A DNA stretch of 29,765 nucleotides from Patescibacteria group bacterium (lineage in GTDB: Bacteria > Patescibacteriota > Minisyncoccia > Phycocordibacterales > UBA1006). The stretch covers positions 1-29,765 of the forward strand of contig JAGQMO010000011.1 of the NCBI GenBank assembly GCA_020428615.1, given 5' to 3'. Shown piece by piece: positions 1,984-14,658 of this stretch. Position 1 is the stretch's first letter. Each line of letters begins with the position of its first letter. The position numbers and the translations under genes are program-made. The notes under the pieces were generated by a model, which was not told the DNA's origin, ran no database searches, and saw nothing but the letters and a program-made list of their open reading frames with translations.

Positions 1984-2784
1984 TTACGCTATTTCGAGCT
2001 TTTCTTTAGCTTTGCTTGTCTTCTTTCTTGTTGCATGCCACAGTAGTGCCAGACCAAGTCCGGCAACAGCTGGGACAAACAAAACAAAAGTATCAAAAAA
2101 ATACCAAGTAGCTGCCATCGTAAGCAATGATCCAATAAAGAATACACTCTTTACGGTTCTGTATAGAGACGTGGCGTTTAATTTATTCCCAAAGACACCG
2201 ACAGCTAGAGCTAAAATTGGGGCAATACAGCCAAAAATAAGTAACAATTCAAGTCTAATTCTTGTGCTGAACCCGATGTAAAGCAAAAAACCACCAACAG
2301 CCACAAGAAAAAGTCTATGCGAAAGTGCGAAATCCATCTTTCCTTTTCCTCTTTTTACTGCCGCTATCCCCTTACCACATAGCAAATAGTAAAGGAAGGT
2401 AAGCAACATTACCAACCAAGCAACTTTCCAATCATCTTGTGGCAATGAATCAACATGGGTTACAATTCTACCGTGATCACCCAAGCTCTCATCAAATCTG
2501 AGAGTGGTCTCGTGACGAACAGACTGTTGGTACCAATCCTTCAGGATGGTAGTCGTGGAATTGTTCACGATATAGGGCTTTCCGCCTAGTTTGTAAGCAT
2601 TCCAGTTTTCTTCATTCGAGTATTTTTCGTTAAATACCCCAGATGGGATTACTATCGCCCTTGCCAATTGTTCGGTGGTTAGGTAAAGAGTTTCTTCAGT
2701 AATGGTTGGTACAAGTACATCATCGCTGTCAACACACGATACAAACAATAATCCGCAAAACAAAGCAATAAATAATGTTTTCAT
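1984..2784 (-). CDS. Hypothetical lipoprotein with C-terminal multi-TM domain (266 aa)
   Basis: Signal peptide II MKTLFIALFCGLLFVS-C, then a soluble region of about 100 aa and about 5 hydrophobic segments. Has its own promoter and terminator. Confidence 0.75.
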   Translation of the reverse strand: MKTLFIALFCGLLFVSCVDSDDVLVPTITEETLYLTTEQLARAIVIPSGVFNEKYSNEENWNAYKLGGKPYIVNNSTTTILKDWYQQSVRHETTLRFDESLGDHGRIVTHVDSLPQDDWKVAWLVMLLTFLYYLLCGKGIAAVKRGKGKMDFALSHRLFLVAVGGFLLYIGFSTRIRLELLLIFGCIAPILALAVGVFGNKLNATSLYRTVKSVFFIGSLLTMAATWYFFDTFVLFVPAVAGLGLALLWHATRKKTSKAKEKLEIA

Positions 2785-2915: not shown

Positions 2916-5279
2916 ATGTTCCCCATGCGAAGAGTGCACAACAAGCGGAACAGGTGAATCGTATTTCAAGTATGAGCTTTTCAATATATCTTCCATGATA
3001 CGCTCAGCGTTTTTTGAGAACTCTTGTACGAAACTATCATTCACCTCGTAGATAATCTCGTCATGAATTTGAAGAATCAGCTTTGCGTCTAGTTTCTTTT
3101 TTTCCTCTTCAAGCCATGCGTTGATGTGTACCATAGCGAGCTTTGTAATATCGGCATTCGTTCCTTGAATTGGAGCATTCAATGCCATGCGTTCCGCCAT
3201 CGCACGAATGAAACCGAGTTTCGAGTTAATATTCTTGAACTGACGCTTTCTACCAAAGAGCGTTTTTGTGAATCCATGTTTGCGTGCATGTTCTTTTGTC
3301 GCTTCAAGGTACGCGGTTGCCTTTGGAAACTGAGTGAAAAATCCGTTGTAGAATTTCTCTGCTTCTGCTCTATCAGTTCCCATTTCACGTTTTACTGAAT
3401 TAATTCCCATGCCGTAGAGAATACCGAAGTTCACAATCTTTGCTTTTCGGCGCATTTCTCGATCAACATCTTTGACCGAAACTCCACCAATGAGAGCAGC
3501 AACTGCCGCGTGAATATCCTCACCATCTTGGAAAATCTTTATCAACGCTTCATCACCTGAGAGCATGGCCAAACACCTGAGCTCAATCTGCGAATAGTCG
3601 AGCGAAACGAGTTTGTGACCTTTTTCCGCAATAAATCCTTCGCGAATTTTTCGTCCGAGATCGGTTCGCGTTGGAATATTCTGCATGTTGGGATTGCGAG
3701 ACGAGAATCGTCCTGTTACGGTTCCGTTTTGCAGAAACTCTGCATGGAGGCGTCCGTCATTCCCCACCATTCCAGGAATATTGTCGATGTATGTTGAGAG
3801 GAGTTTGTCGAGTTCTCGGTACTCAATAATGAGCGGAATGATTTCGTGCTGATCTTCAAGTTTGTTCAGTGTCTTAATATCTGTCGAATACGCGCCTGTT
3901 TTTGATTTCTTAATTCCTTTAGTCGGTAAACCCATGTTTTCAAATAACACTACTGAAAGCTGTTTGGGTGATTTTATATTGAACTCCGATCCTGCGAGCG
4001 TGTGAATCTGCTGTCCGAGTTTATCGAGTTCACGGTGATAATTTTTCGAAAGCTGAGCAAAAAACGGTTGATCAATCATAATCCCATTTTTCTCCATATC
4101 AGCTGTTACGGAGATGAGCGGTTCTTCAATATGTGCAAATACCTGTGCATCCTCAGAATCCTCGTTTAACTGTTGTTCAATGATTTTTGTGGCATCATCC
4201 AATGATGTTGTTTTTGTATACAATAAGATATCTTCGAAGCTTGCGTCTGTTTTGTCTGAATCAATCAGCCACAACTGAATCGCTGTTCTCTTGATGTCCC
4301 CAACATGTACAGGTTCCGATTCTTTCTTTTCTCCTTCAGATGTCTGCACCAATCCAGAGAGACCAAGGGAAAGCTCCAGTCTCTGTGGGAGCGAGCGAAG
4401 TTCGTATTTTTCAAAAATATTCAACGCTTGAGGTGTATCAACAGCATCTTTCCACGAGTGTTCAGGCAATTCAAACACAATCGGCGCATCATGTCGAATG
4501 GTAGCAATCACCTTCGAGAACTCGGCCTCTTCTTTGCCTTCTCTCATCAAATTCACCATGCGTTTGGTCAATCCAATATCAAGGAGCGCCTGGTCGTTCT
4601 TATCAAGCGCAGTGTACATATTCTCAATTGTACCGAACGCCGCAATAGCAAGAGTTGCGGCTTTGTCTCCAATACCCTTGATACCGGGAATGTTATCGGA
4701 CGGATCACCACGGAGTGCCTTGTAGTCAATGATCGACAACGGCGGAAAACCAAATCGTTCAATAACGCTAGATTCATCATACGTAACCGTATCGTTCAAA
4801 CCTCGTTTGAGGGTGTAGACTTGTACTCGTTTTTTATCAACGAGCTGAAGCGTATCCATGTCCCCCGAGGCGATGAGTACTTGGAGTTTTTTATGGTCTT
4901 TTAGTTGAGTTGCAATAGTCCCCAAAATATCATCCGCCTCAAATCCAGGAGCATCATAGATAGGGATCGCAAACGCTTCACAAATATCTCGAGTAGCATC
5001 AAACTGCATAACGAGCGCTTCATCAGTTTCACTGCGACTTCCCTTGTAGTCTTCAAAAGCTTCGTGTCTAAACGTAGCGCCTGGTAAATCATAGCAAGCG
5101 ACAATGTAATCAGGTTGAAACTCATCAATAATTTTTAAGACCATGGTTGCAAAACCGTAAATAGCACCAGTTGGCCTGCCATCGCTCGTTGTAAAGTCAG
5201 GCATAGCGTGATAAGCGCGATGAATGATTGCATGTGCATCAAGCAAAACCAGAAGTTGTTTCTTGGAATCTCGATTCAT
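2898..5279 (-). CDS. polA: DNA polymerase I (793 aa), 5'-3' exonuclease plus polymerase, proofreading domain vestigial
   Basis: LLDAHAIIHRAYHA, EADD and GDPSDNIPGIKGIG (5' nuclease). TGRFSSRNPNMQNIP, DYSQIELR, K..NFGILYG and QIHDE (Pol A motifs). ATG 5279 follows TG-G-TATACT-N6. Confidence 0.97.
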   Translation of the reverse strand: MNRDSKKQLLVLLDAHAIIHRAYHAMPDFTTSDGRPTGAIYGFATMVLKIIDEFQPDYIVACYDLPGATFRHEAFEDYKGSRSETDEALVMQFDATRDICEAFAIPIYDAPGFEADDILGTIATQLKDHKKLQVLIASGDMDTLQLVDKKRVQVYTLKRGLNDTVTYDESSVIERFGFPPLSIIDYKALRGDPSDNIPGIKGIGDKAATLAIAAFGTIENMYTALDKNDQALLDIGLTKRMVNLMREGKEEAEFSKVIATIRHDAPIVFELPEHSWKDAVDTPQALNIFEKYELRSLPQRLELSLGLSGLVQTSEGEKKESEPVHVGDIKRTAIQLWLIDSDKTDASFEDILLYTKTTSLDDATKIIEQQLNEDSEDAQVFAHIEEPLISVTADMEKNGIMIDQPFFAQLSKNYHRELDKLGQQIHTLAGSEFNIKSPKQLSVVLFENMGLPTKGIKKSKTGAYSTDIKTLNKLEDQHEIIPLIIEYRELDKLLSTYIDNIPGMVGNDGRLHAEFLQNGTVTGRFSSRNPNMQNIPTRTDLGRKIREGFIAEKGHKLVSLDYSQIELRCLAMLSGDEALIKIFQDGEDIHAAVAALIGGVSVKDVDREMRRKAKIVNFGILYGMGINSVKREMGTDRAEAEKFYNGFFTQFPKATAYLEATKEHARKHGFTKTLFGRKRQFKNINSKLGFIRAMAERMALNAPIQGTNADITKLAMVHINAWLEEEKKKLDAKLILQIHDEIIYEVNDSFVQEFSKNAERIMEDILKSSYLKYDSPVPLVVHSSHGEHWGKLK

Positions 5280-5816: not shown

Positions 5817-8800
5817 TTAACCTCGATTAGGTCTATATGGCTCATAGTAATCATCACGATAATTTGTATCTGGGGTTTGAGGTATGTTGTACGATGGTTC
5901 TGGTTCAACATACGCGCGAGGTTCTGGATAATTATTATAATGATATGGCAACGGAGCGTATGGCGCATACCCTGCATATGCTTGAGCCCGCATTTCTTCA
6001 CGTTCAAGGTACAACCAACGCGCTACCAAGAAGATAATAAAGAGTCCGAGAAGAATCACTAACCAACCAAGGAAAGTAATGTTCGCGAGTCCAAAGACAG
6101 AAGCGGTTACACCAGCAACTTGAACTCCGTAACCATCAACGTCCCAATCAATAGCATTTTCTTGGGCGTCATTGACTGGATTATCATACGCAATTTCTGC
6201 CTGTGCAGTAACGAGGTTACCGATGGTTCCTCGTCCAACAATTCCATCAACCGTAAGGAATCCGTCTTCTCCCGCCTCAAGTTCATCAATAGTAAAGTAA
6301 ATGGTATTGCTGTCTTGATCAAATCGTCCTCGAGAAATATCGGTTACCTCAATTTCTGGAGGCATTACCACCTTGAGATCAAGATCAAAGAGATCAAGGT
6401 CATTGGTAATATTTTCCCATTCAACAACATATTCCACCGATTGACCTCGAGATACGACTTCTTCTTGGTCATCAATTTCAAGACGAACGAGTGAGAGTCC
6501 GAGTCCGAGAGTTGAAAGATCAATCTCAGTATTATCATCAATCACAACAACTGGAGGAGGTGTTGGTCCGCCTGTTGAAGGGGGGGTGTTGAAACACCGC
6601 ACCGCTCCAGTATCAGTTCCATACGGAGTTTGAATGACCGCTTGGATACAATACTGCGTGTTTGATGCAAGATTAGTGAAATTGTGAACACAATTACCAT
6701 AACCGCTCACGCTATATGTTCGTGTTTGTCGTCCAAGAGAAGATGTTCTTCCGTAGTTAAACCAACAGGTACCGGAAGGTGCGTTGGTAACGTAGGTACC
6801 ATTGAGGGTAGCGCTATTCGAACGAATATTTGTTGGATTGTCAGTCGTAATAACTGGTTGTCCAATTGGAACATCAGTACCAAGTGTTCTGAACGAACGT
6901 GTTGGCGCACATCCTTCCGGAGTACATGCACGGTAGAGGTATGAGGTGTTCCCGGTCAATCCACTCACTCGTTCACAAAATGAAGTTGCGTGTCGCTGAC
7001 GAATTGGAGTACTGGTGTAAAAACTCTGATTTGCATTTCGGAATTCAATCCATGTTTGAACTGAATCTCCCCCATCTTCAACGAGGGTTCCACACATCTC
7101 AGCAGTGGTTTGGGTAATATTTCGAGGAGCATCAGTTTCAATTTCAATATTATTATTTTCGTTAAGCTCAAAATCTTCTCTATTTCCCTCTATTATATCT
7201 CCATCATTATTAATGGCACACGCCCTATAGTAATAACGTTCATTTTCATTAAAACTGTCTGCATCAATATCGAGATCAAAATCTTCATCATTATCTACTT
7301 CATCAACGATAAGAGGGAAATCATCTTCACAAGAAACACCTGTTGAATCATCGAGTACAAAGTACACCCAGTATGTTTCATCAACATTGGTAATCTCTCC
7401 GCGAAGTGTCACTTCGTTATCATTAACGTGGGGGGATTTTGTTTCAACATCCGCATTGGCATTACCTCCATTATTATCAGTAGTAAACTCCTCGCGCAAT
7501 CCTGAAACAACTTGACCATTGAGGTCTTGCGCACACGCTTTGTAATAGTACGTTCTATTTGGTGTTAGCTGTCCGTTTCCAAATTCATATTCAAAATTAT
7601 CTCCACCCTCAAGAAGAATACCAAAATCTTCTGGGAAAGTAGGTGTGTCGGTAGAACAGTTGAGCGATAGGTTCTCTTCTTTCCATACAAAATATGGATA
7701 AGTTGTTTGACCCGCAATTACTCGTCCTCGAATAGTCGCGGTATTTTCAGACACGTTGGTTGCAGTACGTGTTTCAATAATGAGATCATCATTACCTCCA
7801 CACGACTCCTGTGTTGGTGGTTTTGGTTCAACATTTGCAATACAAAATTGGTCTGCAACTTGGTGATCACTTGAATCACGACATACAACCGTACGTGTTC
7901 GTATACCATTGAAACACTGTGTCCATTCACCAACATCCCAGTAGTAACCCACATTAACATTCAAAGTTGTAAATTGAACGGGTGAACCCTGGGCTGATTG
8001 TCCAGGTACAGAGGCACATGCTCTATACCAATAGGTAGTATTAGAACTCAATCCTGTTTTCGTCTTACTAAAAGGTTGAAACGGATTATAAGTACCAGAA
8101 ACAGACACTGAAGGAGAGGTGTTACAATTTGGATTGCTGTTTGTTGCATATACGAACCATACACTCGCATTGCTTCCTGAGGTTAACTGACCATTGAACA
8201 CCGCTGAGTTTTCAGTCACCGTACCTACGCTGAGTGTTTGCACTGCGAGGTTTGGGGTTGATGATTGGGTAGTAAATTGAACTGGATTACCATGAGCTGA
8301 TTGTCCGTTTTGAGTTGCACACGCTTGATACCAATAGGTAGTATTTGAGGAAAGTCCTGATTTTGTTTTGGTGAACGTTTCATTCACATTCACATTTCCA
8401 ACAGAAATCGAAGGAGAGGTATTACAGTTAAGATTGCTGTTTGTCCCGTATACAAACCACGCATTGGCTGTAGTGTTTGCTCCTTCAGTAACCTTTCCTC
8501 TGAACACCGCTGAATTCTCGGTTACCGTACCTACGCTGAGCGTTTGCACCGCGAGGTTTGGGGTTGGGGTCGTATCAATAACACGGAATCGTGCAAACAC
8601 GTATCCTTGGTCACACCAACCATCTCCCCAATCATGGAGATTTCCAATTGTGGTGTATCCGGGATTAGAGAATGAAAACTGCCATGGCCATGTTCCTGGA
8701 TATACGTTGGAACATGAAGTCCCTGAATTTGTATAGTGTTCTTCAACACGCACAAAACCACTCACAAATTCAATTTGCCAGTTGTTTGGAAGATTGGTTA

Positions 8801-9167
8801 CGTATGAGGTATCATTAATAGCCCCAGCATTGCTTCCGTTGAGTTGTGCACTAAAAGTAGCTGTAGAACTAGTTCCTGAGGATGGGAAAGAAATGGAAGC
8901 ATTTGCTCCATTCAGTGTTCCAGAAGAAGCGTTTCGAAAGTTAAGGTAAACGGTAAACTCACCTCCACCATTATTGACAATATTGCTATATGACACTTCA
9001 TTGTAGTCATTCGCGCAGTCATTGCTACAACCGGTATTAATCGTGTTGAAACCGTCATTTCCAAGGGGTTCCGGATCAAAACTCGCCGCATGTGCAAAAG
9101 CAACTCCACCCATAAAAAGTGTTGCAACGAAAATTGTTTTCAGAATTGTTGTAATAAATGTTTTCAT
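5817..9167 (-). CDS. Large membrane-anchored surface protein or adhesin (1116 aa)
   Basis: Signal peptide (..AFAHA-A), a beta-rich N domain, six modules of about 100 aa with Fn3-like pattern T....V....A...G....WF.Y......L...T.YYY.ACA.......F.T, one TSP1-like module, a DUF11-like domain (VSRGQSVEYVVEWEN), a C-terminal TM helix and a Tyr/Pro-rich tail. Confidence 0.85.
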   Translation of the reverse strand: MKTFITTILKTIFVATLFMGGVAFAHAASFDPEPLGNDGFNTINTGCSNDCANDYNEVSYSNIVNNGGGEFTVYLNFRNASSGTLNGANASISFPSSGTSSTATFSAQLNGSNAGAINDTSYVTNLPNNWQIEFVSGFVRVEEHYTNSGTSCSNVYPGTWPWQFSFSNPGYTTIGNLHDWGDGWCDQGYVFARFRVIDTTPTPNLAVQTLSVGTVTENSAVFRGKVTEGANTTANAWFVYGTNSNLNCNTSPSISVGNVNVNETFTKTKSGLSSNTTYWYQACATQNGQSAHGNPVQFTTQSSTPNLAVQTLSVGTVTENSAVFNGQLTSGSNASVWFVYATNSNPNCNTSPSVSVSGTYNPFQPFSKTKTGLSSNTTYWYRACASVPGQSAQGSPVQFTTLNVNVGYYWDVGEWTQCFNGIRTRTVVCRDSSDHQVADQFCIANVEPKPPTQESCGGNDDLIIETRTATNVSENTATIRGRVIAGQTTYPYFVWKEENLSLNCSTDTPTFPEDFGILLEGGDNFEYEFGNGQLTPNRTYYYKACAQDLNGQVVSGLREEFTTDNNGGNANADVETKSPHVNDNEVTLRGEITNVDETYWVYFVLDDSTGVSCEDDFPLIVDEVDNDEDFDLDIDADSFNENERYYYRACAINNDGDIIEGNREDFELNENNNIEIETDAPRNITQTTAEMCGTLVEDGGDSVQTWIEFRNANQSFYTSTPIRQRHATSFCERVSGLTGNTSYLYRACTPEGCAPTRSFRTLGTDVPIGQPVITTDNPTNIRSNSATLNGTYVTNAPSGTCWFNYGRTSSLGRQTRTYSVSGYGNCVHNFTNLASNTQYCIQAVIQTPYGTDTGAVRCFNTPPSTGGPTPPPVVVIDDNTEIDLSTLGLGLSLVRLEIDDQEEVVSRGQSVEYVVEWENITNDLDLFDLDLKVVMPPEIEVTDISRGRFDQDSNTIYFTIDELEAGEDGFLTVDGIVGRGTIGNLVTAQAEIAYDNPVNDAQENAIDWDVDGYGVQVAGVTASVFGLANITFLGWLVILLGLFIIFLVARWLYLEREEMRAQAYAGYAPYAPLPYHYNNYPEPRAYVEPEPSYNIPQTPDTNYRDDYYEPYRPNRG
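7965..8564 (-). repeat. Tandem intragenic duplication, 306-bp period
   Basis: Two units starting TPNLAVQTLSVGTVTENSAVF at 8564 and 8258 (102 codons apart), with long stretches of nucleotide identity. Confidence 0.9.
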
Positions 9168-9207
9168 AAAAAATTGAATAAAAATGCGTGATTGAATAAT
9201 CGAAGAT

Positions 9208-9236
9208 ATATTAGCATATCATAATCATATTGTCAA
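9208..9236 (-). promoter_or_regulatory. Near-consensus sigma70 promoter for the surface protein
   Basis: TTGACA (9231-9236) - N17 - TAATAT (9208-9213), with extended TG. Confidence 0.75.
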
Positions 9237-9291
9237 TGATTTCACTGATAAACCCTCAATTGTTAGTATCTCAATTAAAAGCTTATTAGTG

Positions 9292-9320
9292 AAGACTTTC
9301 GTGTAATACACGAAAGTCTT
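9292..9320. terminator. Hairpin, probable terminator after the 9336-10154 gene
   Basis: 12-bp perfect stem AAGACTTTCGTG / CACGAAAGTCTT. The T-tract on the minus strand is weak. Confidence 0.6.
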
Positions 9321-9335
9321 TTTCGTTAAGTTGTT

Positions 9336-10154
9336 TTAAAAACGAAATGTTGTTTGAAAAACAAACTCTTGTCCCGAATCATTTGGGTTGAAAGGCCCAT
9401 CATCGATATTAGGATTCATAGGGTCCGTGTTCGGACTCCAATCAAAATCAATGTTACCGTCAGTGACTAAATCACCAATGGTACCAACGATGAGACCTAC
9501 TACAATACCATCAACAATGACAGAGAGAATGGGTGTCATACGATCTTGCCAGCCGAGAATTTTGTACGTTACCGGTCGCCACGTAATAGGCACTCTTCCA
9601 AACGACACAGTTTGTTTTGGAATCGTCTTGGTATCAACATCAACGTAACCAGTCAAATCGATATTATCAAATGTCTGGTTGCCAAATTGAACGTTATTAC
9701 GAGTAAAAGAACCAGTGAAATCACCATCTTCCAACTTAGGTAGTTCGATTGGTTGTTTCTTGATATTCTCAATAACCAAATCGGCAATGTACACGAGATC
9801 CTTGTTTTGTTCCTTACAATACTTGTAAATCAATGTATTGTAAGGAACGTTGCTATCCTTTTTCTCTACTTCTTTTTGAAGGTCAGATACCAATGTCCCG
9901 CTGTTTTGAATAATACGAGATTCTCCAGCATAGGGATAGGAAACCTTCACCCATGTTCCATCTTTGTAACCAGCTGAAGGAATTTTTTTGATGGTAAAAT
10001 CGAATATTCCATTTGCTTTAAAATAACCAGTGTAAGCTGTCTCCAGCAAGTCGATCCGCTCTTGTGTACCGTCAAGCACGATAGTATTTACTGATTTTTG
10101 AGCGGTTGTAAGTGTGCTCACAAGCACACTTATGATTAAAAGTATATTTTTCAT
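9336..10154 (-). CDS. Hypothetical exported protein, paralogue A (272 aa)
   Basis: Signal peptide MKNILLIISVLVSTLTTA-Q, a hydrophobic segment near the C-terminus, and a terminal F.F...F.F. Shares motifs with 10292-11302. Confidence 0.75.
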   Translation of the reverse strand: MKNILLIISVLVSTLTTAQKSVNTIVLDGTQERIDLLETAYTGYFKANGIFDFTIKKIPSAGYKDGTWVKVSYPYAGESRIIQNSGTLVSDLQKEVEKKDSNVPYNTLIYKYCKEQNKDLVYIADLVIENIKKQPIELPKLEDGDFTGSFTRNNVQFGNQTFDNIDLTGYVDVDTKTIPKQTVSFGRVPITWRPVTYKILGWQDRMTPILSVIVDGIVVGLIVGTIGDLVTDGNIDFDWSPNTDPMNPNIDDGPFNPNDSGQEFVFQTTFRF

Positions 10155-10190
10155 TGTAAGTGGGTTTTATATGATTGAAATTTTGTATTT

Positions 10191-10219
10191 AAAATATCAA
10201 CAAATCACGATATTGTCAA
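10191..10219 (-). promoter_or_regulatory. sigma70 promoter for paralogue A
   Basis: TTGACA (10214-10219) - N17 - TATTTT (10191-10196), with extended TG. Confidence 0.6.
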
Positions 10220-10239
10220 TTATTTTATCGTCTTTATAC

Positions 10240-10268
10240 AAAAAATGCCCCCAAATAGTGAGGGCATT
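10240..10268 (-). terminator. Intrinsic terminator of paralogue B
   Basis: AATGCCC / GGGCATT stem followed by TTTT on the minus strand. Confidence 0.65.
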
Positions 10269-10291
10269 ATGCTTAAAATTTCAAGACAAAC

Positions 10292-11302
10292 TTAAGATCT
10301 TTTCCTTTTGTATGCCTTGTTGACGGTGTTACTCATGGAGGTGAGTTGGGTTTGAAATGAATTAAAAGTATTCACCCTGTTACCCGTGCCATTTCCTCCG
10401 TTGAAATTTCCGGAGCCGTTAGGATTGAATCCTCCTCCGTTTCCAGATTCGTTTCCAGAATCATTCGGTTTAATAGGTTCATTAATCACAACTTCTGGGT
10501 TATCTCGATGTTTCTTAAAGAGATTAAATAAATTTATCTTACCATCTTCAAGAAGATCAAGTCCAATCACGGTCGCAACAACGGCTACTGGAATAATCCA
10601 ACCGTTTTTTCGCTTTACTTCCAACCTATCATTAAGGCAAACTGGATACTCTAATGCAAGAGTCGCAAAGGCATCTTCGGCTTCCTGTCTGGTTAATCCC
10701 CAACTTTCTTGATAGGGTAATCCATTCCTCAAACCTATTCGACGAGCTTTACGAGCAGTCGGCGTCCGTCCTATTTTTTCAAGAACTTCAATTCTAGCCC
10801 ACTCTGTAGCGGCAATCTCGCATGGCGTCATTGGTGGAGGAGTTTTTTGATTTGGTAATTCATACCTATCAGCAGAATCAGCAAGTAAAGGTAACGTAAC
10901 ATCTTCGGAAAGTTCCTTGGTTGCTTTTTTTGGCAACATACTCAAGACAAGAAGGATTACCCTCCTTTGTACATCACAATAGGTATCAACAATTTCGGAT
11001 ACGGAGATATCAGAATACGGATTATGCATTTTGTTTTGCATGGTATTACTCACAAAAACATCTCCTACATGAATATTTTGGTACTCAATTCTAATTTCCT
11101 TACCATCTCTTCCGTATGGCATAGTGTCACCAACAATGACTTTACTACGCATATCAAAACCGTTTTCAGGCTTCTTGATTTGGTAATTCATACCGTTTGC
11201 CATGGTTGTTGCTCTTTCTTTATCACCAGAAAGAACAATGGTGTTTTGGGCATATAACCCAAAGGTAACTAACAAACTAAAAATAAGGATTATTTTTTTC
11301 AT
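10292..11302 (-). CDS. Hypothetical exported protein, paralogue B (336 aa)
   Basis: Start moved to ATG 11302, giving signal peptide MKKIILIFSLLVTFGLYA-Q. Has a hydrophobic segment (WIIPVAVVATVIGL) and an Asn/Gly-rich tail. Confidence 0.75.
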   Translation of the reverse strand: MKKIILIFSLLVTFGLYAQNTIVLSGDKERATTMANGMNYQIKKPENGFDMRSKVIVGDTMPYGRDGKEIRIEYQNIHVGDVFVSNTMQNKMHNPYSDISVSEIVDTYCDVQRRVILLVLSMLPKKATKELSEDVTLPLLADSADRYELPNQKTPPPMTPCEIAATEWARIEVLEKIGRTPTARKARRIGLRNGLPYQESWGLTRQEAEDAFATLALEYPVCLNDRLEVKRKNGWIIPVAVVATVIGLDLLEDGKINLFNLFKKHRDNPEVVINEPIKPNDSGNESGNGGGFNPNGSGNFNGGNGTGNRVNTFNSFQTQLTSMSNTVNKAYKRKRS

Positions 11303-11312
11303 TTTCTTGGAA

Positions 11313-11397
11313 TTTGTGGAGGGAGAAACCTCCTGGTTTGACTTCTCTCTATACACCACACACGTGGTATCCAGAGAGAAGTCAAACCATTCACAAA
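11313..11397 (-). ncRNA. Structured 5' leader, candidate cis-regulatory RNA
   Basis: 17-bp perfect inverted repeat (11334-11350 / 11373-11389), an adjacent GGAGG/CCTCC hairpin (11318-11333) and an outer TTTGTG/CACAAA pairing, lying between the promoter and the ATG. Confidence 0.55.
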
Positions 11398-11461
11398 AAA
11401 TGAAAAATCGTCAAACCATATATTCTTTTTAATTATAAAAAGTACTGACTTCTTGTATTAT

Positions 11462-11490
11462 ATATTATCATATATAATACATTATGTCAA
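11462..11490 (-). promoter_or_regulatory. Near-consensus sigma70 promoter for paralogue B
   Basis: TTGACA (11485-11490) - N17 - TAATAT (11462-11467), with extended TG. Confidence 0.75.
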
Positions 11491-11493
11491 TAC

Positions 11494-11524
11494 TAAATCC
11501 CCTACCATTTCTGGTGGGGATTTA
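11494..11524. terminator. Hairpin after the 11546-12391 gene (terminator or REP-like)
   Basis: TAAATCCCC-t-ACCA tttc TGGT-GGGGATTTA. Confidence 0.55.
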
Positions 11525-11545
11525 ATTAAATTGTGGGGAGACTAC

Positions 11546-12391
11546 TTAGAATCCTTCGGTACGAATAACCGCTTGTTTAGGAACTACCCTAAACTTCACG
11601 ATATCTAAACGCACATCGGCATTAGATACTTCATATACAGCATTGGTATTTTTTTCCAAAACTACATATGATCCGTCATCGGTTCTTGCGTAACTGTTGG
11701 AATCTTTGTTCAAATTCATATCAGTCCCATTGGGCACCTCATCAAATTTTAAACATTTCCATTGATACCGTCCTGCATTGGTATTGCGCAAGGTTTGCGG
11801 TGTTAGATTAGTTTCGGAAATTTTTCCATTATCGCGAATGATATATCGCAAATGCGGTTTAGATCCACGAACATAACCTTTAGAGTCCCTTCCTCCTTCG
11901 TTTTTCAACACCAGTGCCTTTTCATCCTCGGTGAGATCACTTTCTTTCAGAAAATTAACCTCGGGTGTTGAAACAATTTCGAAATCAAACATAAGTTTGA
12001 TGGTATTTGAAACATCTTGGTTTTTAGGCGTACCGTTTGGTTCTTGTGAAAATGTTACTTCCAAAGTCTTTGGAACGTATGGATTATCTGTCATTTCCAT
12101 AACGCGTAATTTACCTACACTGGATATCCCAGGCAAGGTAATATTTCTGGTCGTGAATTTAAACTTGCCATCAATTAGCTGGAAAGAATCCTTCAGTTGC
12201 AAAACAATTGGCTTGTCAATGTTTGCTTTCGCTCCATTGATACGATCCTCTGTTAGTTTAAAATCGTTAAATGTTTTGGCTACAGCCGGAGCTGATTGCC
12301 ATTGTTCGGATTCATTAACTTCCTGGTAGATCTTTTTTGAGCAAGAAGCGGAAAGAATTCCTAGCAGCAATAAAAGTGTTATGTATTTCAT
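11546..12391 (-). CDS. Hypothetical lipoprotein (281 aa)
   Basis: Lipobox LSAS-C after MKYITLLLLLG. The remainder is soluble and beta-rich. Has its own promoter and a downstream hairpin. Confidence 0.75.
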   Translation of the reverse strand: MKYITLLLLLGILSASCSKKIYQEVNESEQWQSAPAVAKTFNDFKLTEDRINGAKANIDKPIVLQLKDSFQLIDGKFKFTTRNITLPGISSVGKLRVMEMTDNPYVPKTLEVTFSQEPNGTPKNQDVSNTIKLMFDFEIVSTPEVNFLKESDLTEDEKALVLKNEGGRDSKGYVRGSKPHLRYIIRDNGKISETNLTPQTLRNTNAGRYQWKCLKFDEVPNGTDMNLNKDSNSYARTDDGSYVVLEKNTNAVYEVSNADVRLDIVKFRVVPKQAVIRTEGF

Positions 12392-12446
12392 TATGAACGT
12401 GTTTGATGCTTAAAAATTAAGCTGGTTATACAATATTTTCAAATAA

Positions 12447-12474
12447 AATATACCAAAATATATAATATTGTCAA
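12447..12474 (-). promoter_or_regulatory. sigma70 promoter for the 281-aa lipoprotein
   Basis: TTGACA (12469-12474) - N16 - TATATT (12447-12452), with extended TG. The -35 sits inside the palindrome AATATTG-A-CAATATT. Confidence 0.6.
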
Positions 12475-12488
12475 TATTCTTATCCCCA

Positions 12489-12513
12489 AAAAATAAAAGC
12501 CTATTTGGCTTTT
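12489..12513 (-). terminator. Intrinsic terminator of pilB
   Basis: AAAAGCC-aaata-GGCTTTT followed by ATTTTTT on the minus strand, overlapping the stop codon. Confidence 0.65.
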
Positions 12514-14618
12514 GTGAGTGTATCGTGGTGTTCAATTTCTTCTCGGACACGCCGCAGTTTTTGAGAAGCATCCATGCTCGGGTTCTTTTTGGCATGTTCA
12601 TGTAACTCACCAAGATCATCCGCAAGGCGCGTAAAGGTTTTGTGTGTTTCGGCAAAATCTTCTCCGTCATCAAATATTGCTTCCGCTTGACCATATTTGA
12701 GAAGTTCTAAGATAGTTGTTTGTACTTCTCTAATATCATCCTTGATATCCCAGTCTGGATTTACCGTTTGTTTATGCTCAAGCTTTTTCAATCGATCAAT
12801 GAGCATCGAGAGTTCAACACTTTGTTTGGTTAGGAGCGCTCCTGGATTCATCGCCGGAGAATCAATAACTGGTGGTACGCTTTTTTTTTCTTGCAAAGTT
12901 GTTGTATGGTCGGTACCATCGGTATCATCAATCTCAAGATCAACTACTTTTTGTACTTCTTCAAAACTTGTCGTTCCATCAAGAATTTTAATTACACCGT
13001 CTTCCCGCATATTGAGTAATCCCTGTTTCTCAGCAACTTTTCGTACTTCTTGTTCAGAGGGTTTTTTGTTTAAAAGTGCTTCAATATGTTCATCGGTAAT
13101 AATGGCTTCAAACAATCCTACGCGGCCTTTGTATCCAGTCCCGTTACATTCTTTACATCCCTTACCTCGCGTGAGTGTAATTTGTTGGTCGGGGTTCAGC
13201 CCATATTCATGAAGTGGTTTGTTATTGTTCGCAGCTTCTCTCAAGATGGCTCGAATAATGCGTTCCTCTTCTTGGTTGGGATCCTCTTGTTCAGCGCAGT
13301 GTTTGCACACTCGCCTCACTAAACGTTGTGCAAGAGATACTGAGAGTGCAGCAGCAAGAATTTGAGGAGAAACACCAAGATCCAGGAGGCGCGGAATAAC
13401 CCCAGCGGCACCATTCGTGTGAAGGGTTGAAAATACCATATGTCCCGTGAGAGAAGCATTCACCGCAATATTTGCTGTTTCAGGATCTCGAATTTCCCCC
13501 ACCATGATAATATCAGGGTCTTGTCGCAACGCAGCTCGCAAACCTGAAAGAAAATCGTAACCTTTTTTACGATTTACTTGAGTTTGACTGATTCCCTCAA
13601 GGTGATATTCAATTGGATCTTCAATGGTGAGTATTTTCACATCAGGTGAGTACACCTTGCTCATGAATGAATAGAGAGTTGTGGTTTTACCCGAACCTGT
13701 TGGTCCCGTTGTTAAAATCATACCGTTTGGTTTTGCGATTTCCTTCATGAGAATTTCATACAAACGTGGCTCAATACCCAAATGCTCAACGCCCACTCGG
13801 ATATTATCTGGATTTAAGATACGCATCACAAACGATTCCCCATAGGCACTTGGAATAACCGATACGCGAACTTCAATTTCTTTATTGTCAAAATCAATAG
13901 TAAAACGTCCATCTTGAGCGTTCTCTGTTTGTGTCAATTTCATTTCAGATAATAACTTGATGCGAGAAAGGAGTTTTTTATAAGATTCATGATCAAATGT
14001 TGTAATATCTTGAAGCACTCCATCTTGACGAAAACGCAACCGTACCTGTTCGTCTTGCGACTCAATATGAACATCGGATGATTCGGTCGCAATCGCTCCC
14101 CCAAAAATCACCTCCATAAGTTCTGTTGTCTTTTTTACATCTTTATTGTTAATAACCTGAGAAATTTCATCAGCAATATCTTGATTTGTTTGAATTTCAT
14201 CAGCAATACGCTTGAGTTCATCGGTTGAAATATCAAGCATCCCTTCATGTGACGAGCGTGCATAGGAAACATCAGCATAACGTTCCCATGCTTTCTCTAG
14301 ACTGCGTGTTGAAACCAAATGGAGCCCGAGATTATAATCTTTCTCGAGTTTCGCAATGACCTTTTTCGTTTCAGGAAGATTGGGCGATTTAATTCCTACA
14401 TACAGGTCTTTTCCAACAATTTTAAAGGGGGCTACAAATGCACGCCGAGCTTCTTGTTCATCAAGCGTAGTGAGCGCGTCTGTTTCAATAGTCGTTCCGG
14501 TCAAATCAATGTATGGCAGTTTAAAACGTTCAGCAATGCGTTGCACGAACGATTCTTCTTCCTTTTTTCTAATTTCGTCTATCTTCTTCGCTTGTTTGGT
14601 GTTATCAAAGTCGACCAT
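12501..14618 (-). CDS. pilB: Type IV pilus assembly ATPase, PilB/GspE family, with C-terminal extension (705 aa)
   Basis: ASDVHIE-like ESSDVHIE, Walker A GPTGSGKTT, Asp box TIEDPIE, Walker B DPDIIMVGEIRD, His box STLHTN, and two CxxC motifs. ATG 14618 follows TATACT-N9. Confidence 0.85.
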   Translation of the reverse strand: MVDFDNTKQAKKIDEIRKKEEESFVQRIAERFKLPYIDLTGTTIETDALTTLDEQEARRAFVAPFKIVGKDLYVGIKSPNLPETKKVIAKLEKDYNLGLHLVSTRSLEKAWERYADVSYARSSHEGMLDISTDELKRIADEIQTNQDIADEISQVINNKDVKKTTELMEVIFGGAIATESSDVHIESQDEQVRLRFRQDGVLQDITTFDHESYKKLLSRIKLLSEMKLTQTENAQDGRFTIDFDNKEIEVRVSVIPSAYGESFVMRILNPDNIRVGVEHLGIEPRLYEILMKEIAKPNGMILTTGPTGSGKTTTLYSFMSKVYSPDVKILTIEDPIEYHLEGISQTQVNRKKGYDFLSGLRAALRQDPDIIMVGEIRDPETANIAVNASLTGHMVFSTLHTNGAAGVIPRLLDLGVSPQILAAALSVSLAQRLVRRVCKHCAEQEDPNQEEERIIRAILREAANNNKPLHEYGLNPDQQITLTRGKGCKECNGTGYKGRVGLFEAIITDEHIEALLNKKPSEQEVRKVAEKQGLLNMREDGVIKILDGTTSFEEVQKVVDLEIDDTDGTDHTTTLQEKKSVPPVIDSPAMNPGALLTKQSVELSMLIDRLKKLEHKQTVNPDWDIKDDIREVQTTILELLKYGQAEAIFDDGEDFAETHKTFTRLADDLGELHEHAKKNPSMDASQKLRRVREEIEHHDTLTKAK

Positions 14619-14658
14619 ACTGACAACAGTATACAACAGACGACTTTTAAATGATATG

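Follow-up and report, generated by a model that had tools for sequence, protein, structure and literature searches.

Whether genes that look foreign by their export signals are also foreign by descent is the question raised by three co-oriented genes, here called c1, c2, and c3, in the genome of an ultra-small bacterium of the candidate phyla radiation (CPR). The genes lie between pilB and an adhesin gene on a 29,765-nt contig (JAGQMO010000011.1 of assembly GCA_020428615.1), which was analyzed over its full length and is referred to below as the window. A first-pass annotation of this sequence had described them as self-contained cassettes for orphan exported proteins, forming an island that was acquired from a Bacteroidota host or mimics its envelope and whose signals set it apart from the surrounding CPR genome. 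The analysis presented here points to a different answer: the region is probably a vertically inherited, fast-evolving surface-protein module of an activated-sludge CPR bacterium of the class Paceibacteria.

The window corresponds to contig C52 of a 606-kb metagenome-assembled genome (MAG) that comprises 84 contigs and is 92% complete. Its PilB shares 75% identity with the PilB of a MAG titled "Candidatus Paceibacteria bacterium," with other Patescibacteria as the next relatives, and the source organism is, by its sequence, a Paceibacteria-class Patescibacterium from activated sludge. On the minus strand, the gene order is pilB, c3, c2, c1, the gene for a 1,116-amino-acid (aa) Fn3/TSP1-type adhesin, tsaE, and polA.

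Origin and inheritance of the cassettes

Homologues of the cassettes are few and taxonomically confined. A word-indexed search of 5.8 billion clustered proteins with c1 returned two matches, c1 itself and one orthologue, and the same type of search with c3 found only itself. A profile of the family formed by c1 and c2 (see below) retrieved 20 proteins among 1.84 billion representatives. Among 40 relatives, this family was found in 3 of the 17 other genomes of the same genus and in none of 23 other genera of the family and order. All homologues found belong to Patescibacteria of one genus, and no Bacteroidota homologue of the cassettes appeared in any search.

Wherever the context is visible, family members occupy the slot between pilB and tsaE. 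In the relative loci L001, L159, and L161, this slot consists of pilB, a c3-like gene, two family members, the adhesin gene, and tsaE. Four cassettes are present in L101 (a 636-kb contig), and one family member without a c3-like gene in G006, with the copy number in the slot ranging from 1 to 4 between species. Orthologues of c3 (26 to 32% identity) lie directly after pilB in L001, L002, L101, L085, L159, and L161; of these, L085, a short contig of genome G015, covers part of the slot in the same order.

The composition of the cassettes is that of the genome in which they reside: their GC content falls in the 25th to 37th percentile of the genome's genes and their GC content at third codon positions in the 44th to 59th, and their codon usage is within range. 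The open reading frame list and Pfam revealed no mobility genes in the pilB-to-tsaE slot. Native composition, lack of mobility genes, a genus-conserved slot, and CPR-only homologues do not fit a horizontally acquired island. The proposed acquisition from Bacteroidota is largely refuted by the restriction of all homologues to one Patescibacteria genus, an outcome that the first-pass annotation itself had foreseen as speaking against its proposal. The native composition, the genome's own sigma-70-type promoters, and the conserved slot order likewise argue against an import.

The broader suggestion of an island that came from or imitates a Bacteroidota envelope draws on the appearance of the c1 to c3 signal peptides, which are Bacteroidota-like in that MKK and a hydrophobic stretch are followed by A-Q or a lipobox. 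In addition, the language-model neighbours of c3 are Bacteroidota lipoprotein-type clusters, at scores of 0.75 to 0.80 that shuffled sequences also reach. However, signals of this kind are spread over the whole genome and genus (see below), and we consider such an island very improbable. The cassettes appear, from sequence comparison, to be a native, vertically inherited, and fast-diverging module.

The pace of this divergence becomes clear when the window is compared to L001. RuvB, PilB, and PolA are 88%, 75%, and 72% identical between the two loci, in contrast to 54% for the adhesin, about 50 to 52% for c1, 36% for c2, and 28% for c3. At short range, a c2-type gene could be compared between C67, a contig of the same MAG, and G015. 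The two copies differ by 5 nonsynonymous and 11 synonymous changes, corresponding to a ratio of nonsynonymous to synonymous substitution rates (dN/dS) of 0.12, and all five amino acid changes lie in the C-terminal tail. The c2-type gene is under purifying selection at this range and is therefore a real coding sequence.

The two family members on C67 were initially taken as extra paralogues, a reading that was rejected. The DNA of C67 (L083, positions 1 to 2074) is 97.5% identical to the pilB slot of G015 (L085), and the MAG contains a diverged second copy of both ruvB and holA; C67 is therefore co-binned DNA and not a second locus. The additional RuvB, encoded on C68, is 86% identical to that of the window, and a second HolA fragment on C42 is 74% identical. 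Such pieces of a sister species fit the estimated contamination of 2.8%.

The presence of these sister-species fragments (C67 and the duplicate RuvB and HolA pieces) would be the main reason to suspect an artefact, in which the region is misassembled, stems from contaminant DNA, or consists of noncoding open reading frames. However, the window is syntenic with four independent assemblies (L001, L101, L159, and L161). From the probable source run, a second assembler built a contig that crosses the region with no difference, and three further runs, of which two belong to other activated-sludge studies, supplied short contigs that tile all gene junctions with 0 mismatches. These independent assemblies rule out the chimera for which a check of read coverage had been advised, and together with the dN/dS value of a family member they reduce the chance of an artefact to a negligible level.

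The contigs also offer a glimpse of strain variation. In run X2, the contig depth is approximately 7 over the adhesin gene and pilB and drops to 2 to 4 over positions 9914 to 12370, which cover the 5' part of c1, c2, and c3. Moreover, contigs of runs X2 and X3 break off into unlike sequence at positions 12444 and 12475, inside the c3 promoter. This hints at a coexisting strain with a replaced c2-c3 segment, and no more than hints at it because contig depth is a poor measure.

Transcription units and the proteins that they encode

Three co-oriented genes, each with a promoter and a hairpin of its own, had been described between pilB and the adhesin gene, and this arrangement was confirmed (Table 1). 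Four minus-strand promoters were found, one ahead of each of c3, c2, and c1 and one ahead of the adhesin gene, all with a perfect TTGACA box, a spacer of 16 to 17 nt, and a TG-extended -10 box. Each cassette is followed by a hairpin, of which the one downstream of c1 was not called by the scan because it lacks a T tail. The three cassettes are hence predicted to be transcribed separately, each from a strong promoter of the sigma-70 type to a hairpin that resembles an intrinsic terminator. The c2 transcript would start with a structured leader; when positions 9000 to 12800 were queried against Rfam, nothing scored above the threshold, and the c2 leader gave only subthreshold hairpin-like matches. 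The leaders of c3 and c1 are short, and no obvious Shine-Dalgarno sequence precedes c1, c2, or c3.

Translation of c2 most likely starts at the ATG at position 11302 rather than at the GTG at position 11359, because all orthologues begin with MKK or MR followed by a hydrophobic stretch. Some public gene calls begin c1 or c2 nine residues late (P0005, 263 aa; P0007, 327 aa), thereby cutting the signal peptide, so that the export signal would escape automatic annotation.

Table 1. Genes and predicted regulatory elements of the pilB-to-adhesin region and the gene at 1984-2784 (window coordinates; cleavage sites are predicted)
Feature	Position	Strand	Description
pilB	12501-14636	-	Assembly ATPase of the type IV pilus; bounds the slot on its upstream side; Pfam T2SSE, E = 7.5e-117
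Hairpin after pilB	12495-12513	-	Terminator-like
c3 promoter	12445-12474	-	TTGACA, 16 nt, TG-extended TATATT; 11/12 consensus matches
c3	11546-12391	-	281 aa, beta-rich, predicted exported; lipobox-type N-terminus ILSAS-C; no Pfam match
Hairpin after c3	11500-11519	-	8-bp stem with 5 GC pairs; called on the + strand by the scan, palindrome equal on the - strand
c2 promoter	11462-11490	-	TTGACA, 17 nt, TG-extended TAATAT
c2 5' leader	11303-11455	-	~150 nt; long perfect stem at 11334-11389
c2	10292-11302	-	336 aa; signal peptide ending LYA-QN
Hairpin after c2	10244-10268	-	Terminator-like; 10-bp stem, then T run
c1 promoter	10191-10219	-	TTGACA, 17 nt, TG-extended TATTTT
c1	9336-10154	-	272 aa; paralogue of c2; signal peptide ending TTA-QK
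Hairpin after c1	about 9291-9323	-	13-bp inverted repeat, read from the sequence
Adhesin promoter	9208-9236	-	
Adhesin gene	5817-9167	-	1,116-aa Fn3/TSP1-type surface protein with C-terminal transmembrane helix
"Fourth similar gene"	1984-2784	-	266 aa; lipobox-like LFVS-C start; several later hydrophobic stretches, read from the translation

The cassettes are not three unrelated orphans, as had been assumed, since c1 and c2 are paralogues (29% identity, E = 3e-7). They represent two old paralogous subfamilies of a previously undescribed, genus-restricted protein family. A fourth gene at positions 1984 to 2784 had been described as similar to the cassettes. Its lipobox-like start holds up, but no relationship to c3 was found. 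The only relative retrieved for it, a hypothetical protein annotated to a "Patescibacteria group bacterium," is 51% identical over 55% of the query. At the corresponding position, L001 carries an unrelated secreted protein.

In c2, the predicted signal peptide is followed by a thioredoxin-like alpha/beta domain, a three-helix domain, a short hydrophobic anchor, and an Asn/Gly/Ser-rich tail with the motif PNDSG. The c1 protein shares the N-domain and the C-terminal anchor/PNDSG module and differs in its middle region. Conserved across the family are Q/N-x-TIV-x-G at the mature N-terminus and a Y/L-C-x-x-Q motif, as well as a C-terminus in which a short hydrophobic segment precedes an acidic D-L-x-x-D/G-G-x-I-D stretch and a tail with P-N-D-S-G or H-T-E-P-x-G. 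The same C-terminal module is attached to different N-domains in P0017, P0018, P0020, and a 301-aa gene of L085, and the family is therefore modular. A further pair, P0011 and P0020, shares a near-identical middle and C-terminal module and has unrelated N-terminal domains, which indicates domain shuffling within the family.

An AlphaFold2 model of c2, based on a 22-sequence alignment, has a mean predicted local distance difference test (pLDDT) score of 71. It exceeds 90 for residues 20 to 125 and is approximately 85 to 94 for the helices at residues 160 to 218; the hydrophobic segment and tail are of low confidence. The modelled N-domain adopts a thioredoxin-like topology and lacks a CxxC motif. 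Fold searches with this model (Foldseek and VIA-align wide on PDB; AFDB clusters; ESM Atlas) yielded only noise-level thioredoxin-like or helical matches, the best of which had a Foldseek E value of 0.03 and VIA Z scores of 4.7 to 4.9. Compared to a 109-aa thioredoxin-like phage protein, the template modelling score is 0.52 when normalized on the match and 0.22 when normalized on the query. For c3, the model (four sequences, pLDDT of 48) is too poor to use. Pfam searches with c1, c2, c3, and the protein encoded at 1984 to 2784 gave no credible family, and the language-model neighbours were unusable for c2 and below useful scores for c3. A heterodimer prediction for the c2 and c1 ectodomains scored 0.00, which gives no verdict either for or against binding.

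The position of the cassettes raises the possibility that c1, c2, and c3 belong to the type IV pilus machine itself, as minor pilins or assembly factors, given that they lie directly downstream of pilB in all relatives examined except G006. However, their N-termini resemble classical Sec signals and lack the class III prepilin signal (G-F/M-xxx-E), and no pilus or pilin Pfam match was found. Moreover, each gene has its own promoter and terminator, the copy number differs between species, and a separate pilus cluster with pilin-like genes is located on contig C14. A role as pilus components is thus quite unlikely.

The genes that flank the cassettes show conserved features of their own. The C-terminal extension of PilB past the ATPase core (positions 12501 to 12941) is conserved in L001, with an alignment that reaches residue 707 of 711. 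The adhesin gene is the fourth member of the conserved module. The C-terminus of its product (positions 5817 to 5900) consists of a clear transmembrane helix and a predicted cytoplasmic tail ending in YYEPYRPNRG. This tail is conserved in L159 and L161 and occurs as SYQPYRPNRG in L101; it may serve as a docking motif.

Export signals and their cognate enzymes

The predicted signal regions end in LTTA-QK in c1 and GLYA-QN in c2, in agreement with the earlier description of signal peptidase I cleavage directly before Gln, in ILSAS-C in c3, and in LFVS-C in the protein encoded at 1984 to 2784. The Gln at position +1 is invariant in the first five aligned family members and present in 11 of 16 remoter ones; four of the five members without it carry Asn instead. 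Asn is unable to form pyroglutamate, so this pattern fits a signal-peptidase or mature-N-terminus preference better than a need for pyroglutamate.

To compare signals across genomes, we counted A-Q in the c-region window of signal-peptide-like N-termini, a statistic that does not depend on the choice of cleavage site and that replaced two earlier signal-peptide rules, which had mixed membrane anchors with true signals. A-Q occurs in 23 of 138 candidates of this genome (33% of A-polar pairs), 27 of 80 in the same genus (40%), and 12 of 60 in the family's other genera (26%). The corresponding values are 3 of 61 (11%) in the order's other families, 2 of 50 (9%) in other Patescibacteria, and 8 of 168 (5%) in other phyla, and the background in mature protein parts is 6 to 9%. 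Within this genome, predicted A-Q signal peptides are found on, for example, a T4SS pilin-domain protein, a peptidoglycan-binding protein, and many small secreted proteins.

Lipobox-like N-termini are also widespread, with 10 counted in this genome and 9 across 300 kb of the genus, and the Cys at the c3 position is kept in all seven proteins examined, at identities of 26 to 32% or less. An acidic stretch after the Cys, as in the Bacteroidota lipoprotein export signal, occurs in about 4 of 17 lipobox proteins and was not used as evidence. The signals had been read as characteristic of diderm Bacteroidota. They prove to be genome- and genus-wide, and weaker across the family, and hence are not specific to the island. 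Nor is a lipobox a mark of diderm Bacteroidota, since monoderm bacteria also make lipoproteins. Both the +1 Gln and the lipobox Cys thus appear to be the ordinary export style of this Patescibacteria family rather than foreign marks.

A check of this genome for glutaminyl cyclase (QC), Lgt, and LspA, which the first-pass annotation had suggested, showed that all three are absent, in contrast to signal peptidase I, which is present as a single copy. The search was extended to 41 family genomes, 28 of which are of high quality. Lgt and LspA gave no match in this genome and none above the cutoff in any of the 41 (controls were detected in 10 of 14 genomes). The same holds for plant-type QC (PF05096) and the M28 family (PF04389), which contains animal-type QC, with the M28 control detected in 14 of 14 control genomes. 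In the class as a whole, Lgt (PF01790) was found in 25 of 151 sampled genomes; most of them lack it, yet the genus retains many lipobox-like N-termini. Without Lgt and LspA, c3 is unlikely to receive a classical diacylglyceryl modification or to be cleaved by signal peptidase II. Of the earlier designation of c3 as an LSAS-C lipoprotein, the lipobox Cys stands and lipidation of the Lgt/LspA type is doubtful. Cleavage by signal peptidase I immediately ahead of the c3 Cys, or beside it, is conceivable.

A further Bacteroidota-like signal is the type IX secretion system (T9SS) C-terminal sorting domain PF18962, which 44 of 55 family genomes contain, in some cases on contigs of 200 to 380 kb. None of c1, c2, and c3 carries a sorting domain of this kind (PF18962/TIGR04183), as judged from the lack of Pfam matches. 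A search for the T9SS component SprA was uninformative on T9SS, as no control genome gave a match. Two proteins of this genome, both with a predicted A-Q signal peptide, carry the sorting domain: a 560-aa FG-GAP protein (C73, positions 280 to 1962, L105; PF18962, E = 4.5e-14), whose gene adjoins tpiA, pgk, RNase H, recA, and ftsK, and a 102-aa protein (C79, positions 4708 to 5016, L107; PF18962, E = 1e-10).

These observations lend some weight to a link with Bacteroidota that concerns the whole lineage rather than one island. According to this explanation, the sorting signals are used since the exported proteins meet a Bacteroidota envelope, or they reflect long-term gene flow with Bacteroidota hosts; for instance, proteins including host-directed cassettes might be released into the host periplasm, where host QC, Lgt/LspA, or T9SS would act on them. 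The missing enzymes and, less specifically, the T9SS tails point in this direction, as does the frequency of +1 Gln, which is far above that in the other phyla sampled and approaches the Bacteroidetes mean of 71% (PMC5837995). In addition, Porphyromonas gingivalis phages are known to follow the Q-rule (PMC10653852), and network studies of activated sludge, the habitat of this organism, tie some Patescibacteria to Bacteroidota among other phyla, although they are silent on this genus (PMC10943839, PMC10031880). However, the absence of Lgt from most genomes of the class and the replacement of +1 Gln by Asn, which argues for a signal-peptidase preference and not for QC dependence, speak against it. 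Furthermore, no CPR bacterium is known to live in a periplasm. Overall, a lineage-wide link is unlikely, and it is similarly doubtful that a Bacteroidota host's envelope machinery matures or routes the family's exports, pilB-linked cassettes included. If true, the latter would imply an association much closer than attachment to a surface. A more modest variant may apply, namely, a convergent, cyclase-independent Q-rule in a single-membrane bacterium.

Proposed function and relation to known systems

We therefore return to the reading of the region as a native surface-protein module. The cassettes had been placed beside the pilus ATPase and an adhesin, and this setting was borne out. We propose that Sec exports c1, c2, and c3 and that the one signal peptidase I of the genome then cleaves them, which would expose an N-terminal Gln on c1 and c2. 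These two proteins would be held at the cell surface by their C-terminal anchor, and c3 would be retained there via an unprocessed or unconventionally processed N-terminus, given the lack of Lgt and LspA. The most likely role of the cassette proteins would be in cell-surface or host contact, alongside the type IV pilus and the adhesin. Judging by how they are exported and anchored, how they evolve, and where their genes lie relative to pilB and the adhesin gene, our best guess is that they are cell-surface proteins in contact with a host or substrate.

Several points qualify or weigh against this interpretation. The total of 17 promoter-like sites in the scan is near chance (13.0 +/- 3.3 in shuffles), and only the four best minus-strand sites, with 10 to 11 of 12 matches, stand out owing to their perfect -35 box and placement. 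The hydrophobic anchor of the family is short (11 to 17 residues) and in several members is preceded by basic and followed by acidic residues, a pattern at odds with a simple type I topology. Cleavage sites were assigned by the -3/-1 rule and home-made rules and not by SignalP, and the signal statistics cover only about 100 kb per relative. A conservative automatic rule places Gln at +1 in 28% of cases in this genome versus 5% in other phyla (Fisher p = 0.002) and hand curation in about 23 of about 41, so the share is only bracketed, at approximately 28 to 56%, because the automatic rule misplaces many sites. As the MAG contains sister-species pieces, a few of the genome-wide counts may derive from that relative. 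Lastly, what connects the cassettes to the pilus is their gene position.

In kind, the cassettes are ordinary: lineage-specific, fast-evolving surface proteins of a symbiotic-type bacterium. Nevertheless, c1 and c2 define a new protein family with a confidently modelled and unmatched ectodomain, and a conserved but fast-diverging slot beside a pilus motor gene is a sensible first target in the search for host-recognition proteins of uncultured Paceibacteria. Less expected is a Q-rule-like bias in a CPR family without a recognizable cyclase, combined with a conserved lipobox Cys without Lgt and LspA, of which no prior description was found in the literature searched. Either the signals work differently here, through a signal-peptidase preference, spontaneous cyclization, or an unknown lipidation route, or they reflect a host.

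Published accounts restrict the Q-rule to Bacteroidetes and couple it to an essential QC (Bochtler et al. 2018, PMC5837995; PMC10653852). As in the substrates of that rule, a small residue precedes the +1 Gln in this Patescibacterium, and the bias extends over a large share of the exported proteome. It differs in its occurrence in a Patescibacterium, in the lack of QC across the 41 family genomes, and in a +1 Gln share that, within the range given above, stays below the Bacteroidetes mean. Similarly, c3 and the protein encoded at 1984 to 2784 share with Lgt/LspA lipoproteins a lipobox-like L/I-S/T-A/S-C after a hydrophobic core, with the Cys kept in all seven c3-position proteins examined, whereas the two enzymes were found neither in this genome nor in 40 other family genomes.

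At the level of domains, the confident c2 N-domain model shares its general topology with thioredoxin-like alpha/beta folds, such as subdomain SD1 of FlhA/InvA and SelW, but all scores are in the noise range, CxxC is missing, and no function can be derived. LPXTG, PEP-CTERM, and VPDSG-CTERM (TIGRFAMs) are C-terminal sorting or anchor modules. The c1/c2 family resembles them in that a shared C-terminal module (a hydrophobic segment with PNDSG or HTEP-G) is joined to variable N-domains, with the difference that the motif sits after the hydrophobic segment and not before it. A sortase or exosortase partner did not turn up, although no search aimed at one was made.

A further parallel is offered by the Saccharibacteria, whose type IV pili mediate attachment to the host (PMC9894109, PMC12206443). 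That system belongs to a different CPR class and contains no homologues of the cassette proteins. Both, however, feature a CPR bacterium in which pilus genes stand beside genes for surface proteins and adhesins.

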